A stretch of 46,345 nucleotides of DNA, from NCBI GenBank assembly GCA_964592375.1, contig CAZQDP010000007.1, positions 1-46,345 on the forward strand, read 5' to 3'. Made by a program: the position numbers and the translations under genes. The notes under the pieces were generated by a model, which worked only from the letters and a program-made list of their open reading frames with translations, searched no databases and was not told the origin of the DNA. Positions 6,157 to 16,587 of the stretch are shown in pieces (the stretch's first letter is position 1; every line of letters starts with the position of its first letter). The stretch comes from an uncultured Eubacteriales bacterium. GTDB lineage: Bacteria; Bacillota; Clostridia; RUG12999.

Positions 6157-6244
6157 GCCGGAGTGGCGGAACTGGCAGACGCCCAGGACTTAAAATCCTG
6201 TGGGAGATTCTCCCGTACCGGTTCGACCCCGGTCTCCGGCACCA
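6157..6244 (+). tRNA. tRNA-Leu (UAA)
   Basis: GCCGGAG/CTCCGGC acceptor stem, CAGGA-CTTAAAA-TCCTG anticodon arm, long variable arm, GTTCGAC T-loop, encoded CCA. Confidence 0.97.
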
Positions 6245-6259
6245 AATCATTTTTTATAT

Positions 6260-6336
<77 letters not shown>

Positions 6337-15357: not shown

Positions 15358-16005
15358 ATGGCCGATTATGACAGGTCGGCCGGTACTTCTGAAATATCCT
15401 CTTTAAGTGATGAGGAGTTGGTGGAAAGAGCCCGGTCAGACAATGAAGTTGCGTTAGAGGAGCTCATAGGAAGATACAAAGGTAGTGTCCTGTCCAAAGC
15501 ACGCACGTATTTTTTGATTGGCGCCGACAGGGAGGATATTATTCAGGAAGGTATGATTGGTCTTATCAAAGCCATTAGGGATTATAAGAGTGATCGCTTG
15601 GTCGTTTTTAGAGCCTTTGCAGAAATATGCATTACTCGCCAAATCATTACCGCCATTAAAACTGCAACCCGTCAGAAGCATATCCCTTTAAATTCATATA
15701 TATCTCTAAGTCGTCCTCTGTATGATGACGAGAATAACAACCAAACCTTGCTTGAGCTAATCGAAAGCGATGCCAGCTTCAATCCCGAAGAACGTATGCT
15801 TGTAACCGAAAGCTATAAAGGCGTTGACCAGAAGATATACAAGCTCCTCAGTAAATTTGAGCGGCAAGTTTTAGAGTATTATTTGAGTGGCAGAACGTAT
15901 CTTGAAATATCGGATGCTACGAAGAAGTCCGCAAAATCTGTGGACAATGCACTGCAAAGAATTAAACGTAAGTTAGAAAAATATTACACACCACGTAGGA
16001 AGTAA
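15358..16005 (+). CDS. sigH: RNA polymerase sigma factor SigH
   Basis: YFLIGADREDIIQEGMIGL, AIKTATRQKHIPLNSYISL and KSVDNALQRIKRKL hallmark sequences. Confidence 0.97.
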   Translation: MADYDRSAGTSEISSLSDEELVERARSDNEVALEELIGRYKGSVLSKARTYFLIGADREDIIQEGMIGLIKAIRDYKSDRLVVFRAFAEICITRQIITAIKTATRQKHIPLNSYISLSRPLYDDENNNQTLLELIESDASFNPEERMLVTESYKGVDQKIYKLLSKFERQVLEYYLSGRTYLEISDATKKSAKSVDNALQRIKRKLEKYYTPRRK

Positions 16006-16010
16006 TAGAT

Positions 16011-16084
16011 GCGGGCATAGCTCAATGGTAGAGTTTCGGCTTCCCAAGCCGACGGTGCGGGTTCGATCCCCGTTGCCCGCTCCA
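16011..16084 (+). tRNA. tRNA-Gly (CCC)
   Basis: GCGGGCA/TGCCCGC acceptor stem, TCGGC-TTCCCAA-GCCGA anticodon arm, GTTCGATC, discriminator T plus CCA. Confidence 0.96.
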
Positions 16085-16146
16085 CTATTGTATCTTTGCA
16101 GATGCCAAATAGGTATATTCGGCTCCTATAGAGAGCCTAAATATGT

Positions 16147-16211
16147 ATCCATGTAGCTTAATGGCAAGAGCACTGTGTTTCAGAGGTATCGGTTCAAGTC
16201 CGGTCGGGATC
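16147..16211 (+). ncRNA. tRNA-like element / pseudo-tRNA lacking a normal anticodon arm and CCA
   Basis: TAGCTTAATGGCAAGAGC D-arm, CTG-TGTTT-CAG mini arm, AGGT variable loop, ATCGG-TTCAAGT-CCGGT T-arm, bulged acceptor stem ATCC(A)TG/CGGGAT. Confidence 0.65.
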
Positions 16212-16238
16212 AATTATCAAAAAGTGAGGGGATATCCA

Positions 16239-16508
16239 ATGTACGAAGACAAAACTTTAGCCTGTAAGGATTGCGGAAGTGATTTCGTCTTTACAGCAGG
16301 AGAACAGGAATTCTATGCCGAAAAAGGGTTTCAGAACGAACCTACAAGATGCAAAGAATGCCGTGTAACTCGCAAGAACACCATCAGAGGCGAGCGTGAA
16401 ATGTTCACAATCACATGTGCTGATTGCGGCGCACCGGCTCAAGTACCGTTTAAGCCTAAGAATGACAAGCCTGTTTATTGTAGCGATTGCTTCTCGAAGC
16501 ATAAATAA
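16239..16508 (+). CDS. Double zinc-ribbon protein (zf-trcl plus CxxC-x17-CxxC domains)
   Basis: Start reassigned to MYEDK (ATG 16239, GAGGGG RBS). CKDC...FTAGEQEFY..KGF..EPTRCKEC followed by CADC...VPFKP...PVYCSDC. Confidence 0.92.
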   Translation: MYEDKTLACKDCGSDFVFTAGEQEFYAEKGFQNEPTRCKECRVTRKNTIRGEREMFTITCADCGAPAQVPFKPKNDKPVYCSDCFSKHK

Positions 16509-16539: not shown

Positions 16540-16587
16540 GGGATATAAAAAAATGTGGACTTTTGTGTCCACATTTTTTTATATCCC
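16540..16587. terminator. Bidirectional terminator (perfect 21-bp stem)
   Basis: GGGATATAAAAAAATGTGGAC-ttttgt-GTCCACATTTTTTTATATCCC between convergent genes. Confidence 0.85.

Follow-up and report, generated by a model that had tools for sequence, protein, structure and literature searches.

Organization of the locus

The window examined here, a 46,345-nucleotide (nt) stretch of DNA from an uncultured Eubacteriales bacterium, contains a 65-nt tRNA-like element with a stunted anticodon arm, which lies ahead of the gene of a small double zinc-ribbon protein. Our analysis showed that several families of gut Clostridia have preserved a former tRNA-Thr gene in the form of a conserved cis-element of the zinc-ribbon transcript. 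The local unit consisted, in this order, of sigH, tRNA-Gly(CCC), a small hairpin, the tRNA-like element, the zinc-ribbon gene, and a probable terminator:

15358..16005, + strand: sigH, the gene of the sporulation/transition-phase sigma factor H (open reading frame; NCBIfam SigH equivalog NF006148, 290.5 bits against a cut-off of 208)
16011..16084, + strand: genuine tRNA-Gly(CCC) gene with encoded CCA (ARAGORN; Rfam tRNA, 68.7 bits)
16121..16137, + strand: small hairpin GGCTC-loop-GAGCC between tRNA-Gly and the tRNA mimic (read from the sequence; part of the minimum free energy (MFE) fold)
16143..16146, + strand: 5' flank A-T-G-T (positions -4 to -1), the local variant of the A-T-A-T-then-G context of the family
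16147..16211, + strand: tRNA-like element of 65 nt, derived from tRNA-Thr(GGU) (Rfam tRNA, 31.6 bits; our own covariance model R1, 68.3 bits)
16212..16238, + strand: A/U-rich linker with the Shine-Dalgarno (SD) sequence GAGGGG at 16226-16231 (from the sequence)
16239..16508, + strand: gene of the double zinc-ribbon protein, 89 amino acids (zf_Tbcl + zf_Tbcl_2 / CxxC-x17-CxxC; Pfam, NCBIfam)
16540..16587, no strand: long A/T-flanked inverted repeat with a 20-pair stem and a T run after it on either strand, probably a bidirectional terminator that closes the unit

The start codon of the zinc-ribbon gene (ATG at 16239) was located 27 nt past the end of the element at 16211, as stated in a preliminary description of this DNA, and the SD sequence started 14 nt past the same end. 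No terminator or promoter was found between the element and the gene (16212-16238). The order of sigH followed by the zinc-ribbon gene was seen in the related loci that were read, and in 103 of 120 loci, some of which were duplicates, the zinc-ribbon gene had a SigH homologue encoded upstream on its own strand at a distance of less than 700 nt. A hairpin a few nucleotides 5' of the mimic was also noticed by eye in many relatives, although it was not counted. No conserved partner genes were found downstream, where the genes varied between the loci read. Hereafter, G000 denotes the source genome of the window, L-numbers denote zinc-ribbon gene loci with their flanks from related genomes, and g5 denotes a genus in the same order as G000. 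An ATG at 16143 opened a frame of 121 amino acids (16143-16508, + strand) that crossed the tRNA-like element into the zinc-ribbon gene. This N-terminal extension was rejected as a chance frame not conserved in the relatives, because the element of relatives was 88 nt long, a length difference that is not a multiple of three, and because every homologue started at the methionine of MYEDKTL or MFEDKTL with a strong SD sequence before it.

Structure of the tRNA-like element

The acceptor-like stem was formed by a 5' strand of 7 nt (16147-16153) and a 3' strand of 6 nt (16205-16210), which made six pairs with A16151 bulged. The equivalents of U8-A9 followed at 16154-16155, and the D stem of 4 base pairs (bp; 16156-16159/16168-16171) enclosed the GG-containing loop AATGGCAA. 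The position of the anticodon arm was occupied by the stub CTG-TGTTT-CAG (16173-16183), with 3 bp and a 5-nt loop instead of the normal 5 bp and 7-nt loop. A variable region of 4 nt separated this stub from the T arm, in which a 5-bp stem (16188-16192/16200-16204) carried the loop TTCAAGT. The discriminator C16211 was followed by AAT, and CCA was absent. The tRNA-core features listed in the preliminary description, from U8-A9 and the D and T arms to the bulged acceptor stem, the stub, and the missing CCA, were all present in the sequence. The MFE fold of the element was a cloverleaf of -11 kcal/mol.

The Rfam tRNA model RF00005 aligned with the element end to end (model positions 1-71) and scored it at 31.6 bits, just above the threshold of 29 (window-wide E = 0.0083), whereas ARAGORN made no tRNA call on 16147-16211. 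The element was the weakest of 29 RF00005 matches in G000; the next weakest scored 48.1 bits, and the other 28 were all tRNAs called by ARAGORN. As a candidate member of the tRNA family, it had the score and the full-length match and lacked the anticodon arm, the 3' CCA, and the regular 7-bp acceptor stem. No Rfam 15 family other than RF00005 matched 16147-16211 at its gathering score, and the sub-threshold matches to Plastid-ycf2 and TP53TG1_1 were dismissed as chance. Among 20 related loci scanned, the RF00005 threshold was passed by only 3 of the 13 tRNA-like leaders. One member of the family (L122:1500-1575, - strand) was called "tRNA-???" by ARAGORN, with the four-letter anticodon attt. 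Elements of this kind lie at the threshold of tRNA detection and can be expected to be labelled as tRNA, as pseudo-tRNA, or as nothing by different annotation programs.

Distribution and covariation of the element

A search with this stretch gave a match in 41 of 41 related genomes. The same element was found in five genomes of g5 with a length of 88 nt, and all of the added bases lay within the stub arm. A scan of one genome per species revealed at least 591 loci encoding the zinc-ribbon protein, from which the best 80 were kept for reading of the upstream DNA. A full tRNA-like member was present in 19 of these best 80 of at least 591 loci, and 3 of the 80 had too little upstream DNA to judge. 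In the leader consensus, a closing stem was followed by TAGCTTAA-loop-AGAGC and then by a short stem, in which TTG/CAA or CTG/CAG closed a loop of any length; AGGT and the T arm came next. The alignment of 23 members contained 18 invariant columns. The covariance model R1 was built from these 23 aligned leaders, a seed of related sequences picked with a tRNA-shaped pattern, and gave the leaders scores of 45-72 bits and real tRNAs 46 bits at most.

In the order of G000 (25 genomes, 8 genera), an R1 member was found in six genomes, namely G000 and all five genomes of g5. In a sample of the class (151 genomes), matches at E <= 1e-7 were obtained in 18 genomes, of which 12 scored at least 45.4 bits. 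These 12 genomes belonged to five families (in one family, 5 of 5 genomes) and carried a single copy of the element each, and 8 of them were absent from the R1 seed. The weaker matches of the class sample (44 bits or less, n = 9) were all real tRNAs (3 Asn, 3 Thr-GGT, and 3 Arg). No R1 member was found in the rest of the phylum (150 genomes), where two matches of about 45 bits were real tRNAs. The zinc-ribbon gene was directly downstream of the element at 15 of the 15 loci examined for the class-sample matches, and an element away from this gene was never found in the R1 scans of the order and the class. Some zinc-ribbon homologue was encoded in 94 of 150 genomes of the class sample and a full-length one in 73 of 150 (manual count), so that the full mimic, with 12 carrier genomes, was present in roughly one in six gene carriers. 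The distance from the script-matched stretch to the ATG in other members was 19-41 nt. Among relatives, the stub arm was lacking altogether in some and exceeded 50 nt in others, its loop sequence was not conserved, and its position tolerates, or serves for, extra domains. Structured insertions in the stub arm, of about 35 to 60 nt, were observed in L066:1057-1174 and L100:1082-1175.

In a model-fitted alignment of 26 members, 86.2% of the cells were paired compared with 82.2% in shuffles, and none of 500 shuffles reached the observed value; a slid-partner control gave 29-60% paired. The outer pair of the T stem switched between GC and AU (14 and 10 cells), and the closing pair of the stub switched between UA and CG (17 and 6 cells). 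The D stem hardly varied (two of its four pairs never did, and no pair had a change on both sides) and was therefore uninformative either way. The acceptor-like stem was misaligned in the model fit, its 3' strand being 6 to 8 bases long, and was for this reason tested separately. Its outer 4 bp were complete in 24 of 28 non-redundant members, in several different sequences, whereas permutation of the 3' tails among the members (2000 trials) gave a mean count of 13.3 and a maximum of 20. The acceptor-like stem, the T stem, and the stub stem thus covary. Reading of the unaided MFE folds showed the cloverleaf in most of 31 members, and the irregularity of the closing stem at positions 5-6, a bulge or a mismatch, was present in nearly all members as a trait of the family. 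The bias of the seed and the kinship among the sequences were partly answered by the slid-partner control and by the matches in unseen genomes. The preliminary description had suggested a selected tRNA-like RNA and had proposed a search of relatives for the same element and for covariation. This suggestion was borne out: the element recurred with a variable stub arm, the anticodon arm was missing in the same way in five families and always at the same gene, and three stems covaried.

Origin from tRNA-Thr(GGU)

The real tRNAs closest to the window element were tRNA-Thr(GGT) genes. At L030 and L133, which were among the best matches, tRNA-Thr(GGT) directly followed tRNA-Gly(CCC), and the complete row at L030 was tRNA-Tyr, tRNA-Gly(CCC), tRNA-Thr(GGT), and tuf. 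The mimic likewise followed tRNA-Gly(CCC) in G000, L121, and L122, with a gap of 6-8 nt in the latter two. Sequence and position together showed that the element arose from a tRNA-Thr(GGU) gene, which had formed an old pair with tRNA-Gly(CCC) downstream of sigH. A genuine tRNA-Thr(GGT) was present elsewhere in 5 of the 5 near-complete carrier genomes checked, which marks the mimic as a spare copy with decoding lost. The element retained what processing enzymes recognise in a tRNA: G+1, an acceptor-like helix stacked on a 5-bp T stem, the D arm, a T loop containing U54/A58, and the pre-tRNA-like A-U-A-U 5' flank. The lost parts are those for decoding, namely the anticodon arm, now a hairpin of any length, and the CCA. 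A decaying tRNA-Thr(UGU) had been considered earlier as the alternative to a selected RNA. The descent from tRNA-Thr was correct in that proposal, but the isoacceptor was the GGU one after tRNA-Gly(CCC), and the pattern of loss was not that of random decay.

The 5' flank and a predicted RNase P site

In 28 non-redundant members, the flank of the mimic contained A at -4 in 24, T at -3 in 23, A at -2 in 19, and T at -1 in 22, with G at +1 in 24; the corresponding counts in 63 real tRNAs from the same DNA were 35, 42, 29, 49, and 52. The exact ATAT at -4 to -1 was found at 15 of the 28 mimics, at 9 of the 63 real tRNAs, and at 27 of 3655 background sites (0.7%). Bacterial RNase P prefers U at -1 and contacts the leader via its protein subunit. 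The ATAT was ruled out as a -10 promoter box, since a -10 hexamer abutting +1 would put the transcription start inside the covarying closing stem. At L107 and L118, which had no sigH upstream, consensus promoters (TTGACA/TTGACT-17-TATAAT) were found 25-50 nt 5' of the element. These promoters, together with the tRNA 6-8 nt upstream at L121 and L122, placed the element internal to the transcript. G000 encoded an RNase P RNA of type A (288 bits). RNase Z (TIGR02651) was not found over the cut-off in G000 and five near-complete carriers (6 of 6 genomes), although the same cut-off was passed in only 9 of 14 control genomes, so that its absence is unproven. CCA was encoded in 62 of the 63 real tRNAs and, by reading of the 3' tails, in none of the 28 mimics. 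Since RNase Z was not detected, a 3' cut at the discriminator is unlikely and the module probably stays on the mRNA, with which the distribution of encoded CCA is in keeping.

The existence, the ancestry, and the gene linkage of the element were well supported by these data. As to its mechanism, we infer a bacterial "t-element", in which an RNase P site would define or shield the 5' end of the mRNA, and we give this reading about an even chance. As in a t-element, a non-decoding tRNA-like fold lay within an mRNA precursor, as indicated by the fold, the family, the lack of a terminator, and the promoter or tRNA upstream. The element would be co-transcribed with the upstream DNA, either by read-through from tRNA-Gly/sigH or from its own promoter 25-50 nt upstream. 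RNase P would then cut at the 5' end of the element, freeing the upstream tRNA-Gly or leader and leaving a zinc-ribbon mRNA with a defined 5'-monophosphate end buried in a helix. The tRNA-shaped module would remain attached to the mRNA, forming a compact structure at its 5' end some 10-30 nt before the ribosome-binding site, and would protect the message from 5'-end-dependent decay. The RNase P site was favored by the flank, the transcript-internal position, the RNase P RNA, the lack of detectable RNase Z, and the lack of a terminator taken together. Processing of the mRNA through RNase P and RNase Z had been suggested before; the pre-tRNA-like 5' flank fits the RNase P part of this suggestion, but RNase Z was not among the enzymes detected. 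Sequestration of the SD sequence was rejected as a general mechanism, because an anti-SD sequence (CCTC) occurred in one subgroup only and the SD sequence was free in the MFE fold of G000.

Several observations weighed against the t-element reading. The G000 element was no more stable than its shuffles (z +0.84), so that it is the model scores and the relatives, not the folding energy, that place the element beyond chance. The statistics of the flank came from related, non-independent genomes, and the ATAT might serve another purpose, for instance as the tail of a sigH terminator or as the site of another nuclease. The irregular closing stem and the missing CCA, which is normally contacted by RNase P RNA, could both weaken cleavage, and the RNase Z result carries the limit set by its controls. 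Six of the 8 genera in the order of G000 had, as the homologous leader, a rod-like hairpin without a T arm and without an R1 match, which indicates that the tRNA shape is dispensable there, and the base before the closing stem of the rod was mostly A or G. Other lineages placed unrelated leaders, including raiA RNA, before the zinc-ribbon gene.

Other leaders ahead of the zinc-ribbon gene

The rod-like leaders (L002-L009, L012-L017, L019, L020, L022, and L024) still shared the TCC...GGA closing stem, the CTTA motif, and the CTG...CAG hairpin with the mimic, and had a TATAAA-like box 2-9 nt upstream. In their single-sequence MFE fold, the former D-stem strand paired with the former T-loop region. 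RNAalifold predicted no pairs on a MAFFT alignment of 16 rod leaders, which was attributed to the poor alignment. In the Christensenella-like loci L039 (942-1157) and L042 (942-1158), a full raiA RNA (RF03072; 182.5 and 175.2 bits, respectively) was located directly 5' of the zinc-ribbon gene. It was the only non-tRNA Rfam family in the 20 related loci and belonged to a different leader type. The arrangement at L075 and L094 appeared alike by eye. In the part of PMC11706538 available to us, raiA is described as an abundant trans-acting RNA, and a link to the zinc-ribbon gene did not come up in that part.

Leaders of the Faecousia type (L056, L082, L084, L093, L098, L104, and L106) had a consensus TTGACA/TATAAT promoter, after which came a hairpin and then a closing stem of the form CCCTG...CACGGGGCA; they may be further-reduced descendants of the mimic. 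At L056, the closing stem enclosed a GTTCAAT-like stretch. Many Oscillospiraceae had a short-hairpin type of leader. The reduced forms lacked the D arm or the stub and retained exactly the closing stem and the T arm, which speaks for the t-element reading. Among 106 assessable loci, 30 had a T-arm-like hairpin no farther than 120 nt from the ATG (one of these was a real tRNA-Gly); shuffles gave 0.5 such loci on average and 3 at most. What these leaders have in common is compact folding before the ribosome-binding site, to which the tRNA shape is one of several solutions. Elsewhere in the window, an S10-Clostridia ribosomal protein leader (RF03136; 35964-36046, - strand; 50.2 bits against a threshold of 35.1) and a tandem of tRNA-Leu(TAA) and tRNA-Met(CAT) (6157-6336, + strand) were observed.

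The zinc-ribbon protein

The zinc-ribbon protein matched Pfam zf_Tbcl (PF13451; 93.3 bits against 24, E = 8.6e-27) and zf_Tbcl_2 (PF23477; 73.2 bits against 27, E = 1.3e-20) as well as NCBIfam TIGR04272 (71 bits against 36), which confirmed the earlier assignment of the gene as a small zinc-ribbon gene. Eleven aligned relatives were 71-85% identical to the window protein, and the orthologues across the five element-carrying families were 64-77% identical. The AlphaFold2 model, with a mean predicted local distance difference test (pLDDT) score of 86, contained two zinc ribbons. Foldseek matched no PDB structure at E <= 0.001, the PDB sequences searched with a profile yielded chance zinc-finger matches only, and the protein atlas returned only the protein's own family. 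A manual count gave about 15 basic and about 14 acidic residues. Archaeal (M. mazei) CxxC-x17-CxxC proteins bind zinc, and their function was not given in the accessible part of the source (PMC12704099).

A paralogue in G000 (contig C2:12577-12843) was 57% identical and contained an SRGGSRGG linker. This linker resembles the RGG motifs of RNA-binding proteins. The region of the paralogue (C2:12440-12843, equivalent to L143:641-1044) had a promoter (TTGCAA-17-TATAAT) and an approximately 120-nt leader, in which the 3' hairpin paired CTCCTAA with the SD region. No Rfam family was found over this leader, and a sub-threshold match to trpB was taken as chance. Genes of the zinc-ribbon family were repeatedly found behind structured leaders.

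Alternative explanations

The element could instead be a tRNA-shaped operator, that is, an mRNA site for a tRNA-binding protein (the zinc-ribbon protein in autoregulation, or another one) that tunes translation to the tRNA pool. Its position 27 nt from the AUG and 14 nt from the SD sequence would suit such a role, and an anticodon arm that is free to vary would be expected if only the elbow and the acceptor were read. Genes of the zinc-ribbon family also appeared to be often under post-transcriptional control, as in the G000 paralogue with its hairpin on the SD sequence, and the RGG-like linker of that paralogue also speaks for this reading. An operator was nevertheless considered unlikely, because the protein remained 64-85% identical while the leaders were exchanged for rods, reduced forms, raiA, and other hairpins, unlike a co-evolving pair; shielding of the 5' end fits this pattern better than a specific protein-operator pair. 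The protein is not strongly basic, no tRNA-binding protein turned up as its relative among solved or predicted structures, the mimicry of the anticodon arm that defines the thrS operator was absent, and the conserved pre-tRNA-like 5' flank would be left unexplained. A separate small RNA, cut on both sides, stable, and acting in trans from a transcription unit that the zinc-ribbon gene merely shares, was rated as quite improbable. The stability of tRNA-like folds speaks for it, as do the raiA RNA in the same slot of Christensenella-like loci and the plant t-elements, which are released as stable RNAs; these two points follow the parts of PMC11706538 and PMC1920247 available to us. However, the element was never away from the gene in the R1 scans, the spacing to the ATG was short (19-41 nt) with no terminator or promoter in between, no RNase Z was detected for the 3' cut, and neither the loop nor the stub had a conserved sequence for pairing with a target.

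The clear descent from tRNA and the working tRNA-Thr(GGT) elsewhere would also fit a functionless relic, a dead tRNA-Thr(GGU) copy that decays slowly and is kept by the compact and conserved intergenic region. The ordinary folding energy, the loss of the cloverleaf from 6 of 8 genera in the order of G000, and the existence of reduced and degenerate versions point in the same direction. Such a relic is very improbable in view of the 18 invariant columns and the compensatory changes in three stems across five families, in which the proteins were only 64-77% identical. Moreover, the decay was selective for the decoding parts, and the 5' flank motif was stricter than that of real tRNAs. There is next to no chance that the element is a working tRNA of odd shape that still decodes. 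Although the Rfam tRNA threshold was passed and the L122 member was called by ARAGORN as "tRNA-???", the window element was rejected by the same program, the stub had 3 bp and a 5-nt loop and ranged in relatives from absent to more than 50 nt without a conserved loop, the acceptor stem was irregular, and CCA was missing, compared with its presence in 62 of the 63 real tRNAs.

An extension of the t-element reading, which we regard as quite speculative and improbable, is a "tRNA cap", in which the tRNA-shaped 5' end made by RNase P would stay on the message. Either the cut would compete with the bulk of pre-tRNA, or a tRNA-binding factor, perhaps the zinc-ribbon protein, would read the shape, so that synthesis of the protein would be coupled to the state of tRNA processing at the sigH-controlled stationary transition. 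If this were true, the raiA RNA in the same slot elsewhere would point to a shared pathway that links these RNAs and the zinc-ribbon protein.

Comparison with known systems

A published description of the element was not found in the literature, including a term check of the 224-motif paper (PMC5737381); supplementary motif catalogues (e.g., PMC8040213) lay outside this search and could list the element. It provides a clear example, with comparative support, of a bacterial tRNA gene that became a cis-acting element of an mRNA; such elements are known mainly from the mitochondria of plants, from archaea, and from long non-coding RNAs of eukaryotes. It is also a candidate natural mRNA substrate of bacterial RNase P, with a predicted cut site known to the base, and gives a first handle on a very widespread, uncharacterised small zinc-ribbon protein.

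Compared with the RF00005 tRNAs, the acceptor, D, and T arms of the element aligned end to end, but an anticodon arm of normal size and the CCA were absent and the acceptor stem was bulged. The tufB operon of E. coli is a tRNA-mRNA operon of the tyr-gly-thr-tuf type. The present unit resembles such operons in its succession of tRNA-Gly(CCC), a Thr-type element, and a protein gene, with operon-like spacing (6-8 nt in L121 and L122), and differs from them in that its final "tRNA" has ceased to be one and is followed by the gene of a zinc-ribbon protein rather than by tuf. The tRNA-like domains of tmRNA and of bacterial Y RNA (YrlA), as well as mascRNA, keep the acceptor/T arm and the elbow and have no anticodon function, and mascRNA is released from the longer MALAT1 transcript by RNase P. 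These are parts or release products of non-coding RNAs with other modules, whereas the element lies in a bacterial 5' untranslated region. The E. coli thrS operator is a tRNA-Thr mimic in an mRNA leader by the ribosome-binding site, which mimics the anticodon arm and controls a synthetase gene. In contrast, the element has discarded the anticodon arm, and its gene is not a synthetase gene.

The closest known systems are organellar t-elements. Those of plant mitochondria have ends that coincide with 5' or 3' ends of mRNAs and were taken as sites that signal in cis to RNase P and RNase Z (Forner et al. 2007, PMC1920247, as far as the accessible part of that study goes, here and below). Like them, the element does not decode, has a conserved T arm, and lies inside an mRNA precursor. 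Unlike in the plant elements (PMC1920247), only a 5' cut would be expected in it, RNase Z not having been detected. It differs further from the plant t-elements in that it comes from an identifiable tRNA, tRNA-Thr(GGU), and that it is bacterial and chromosomal, belongs to one gene family, and covaries across families of Clostridia.

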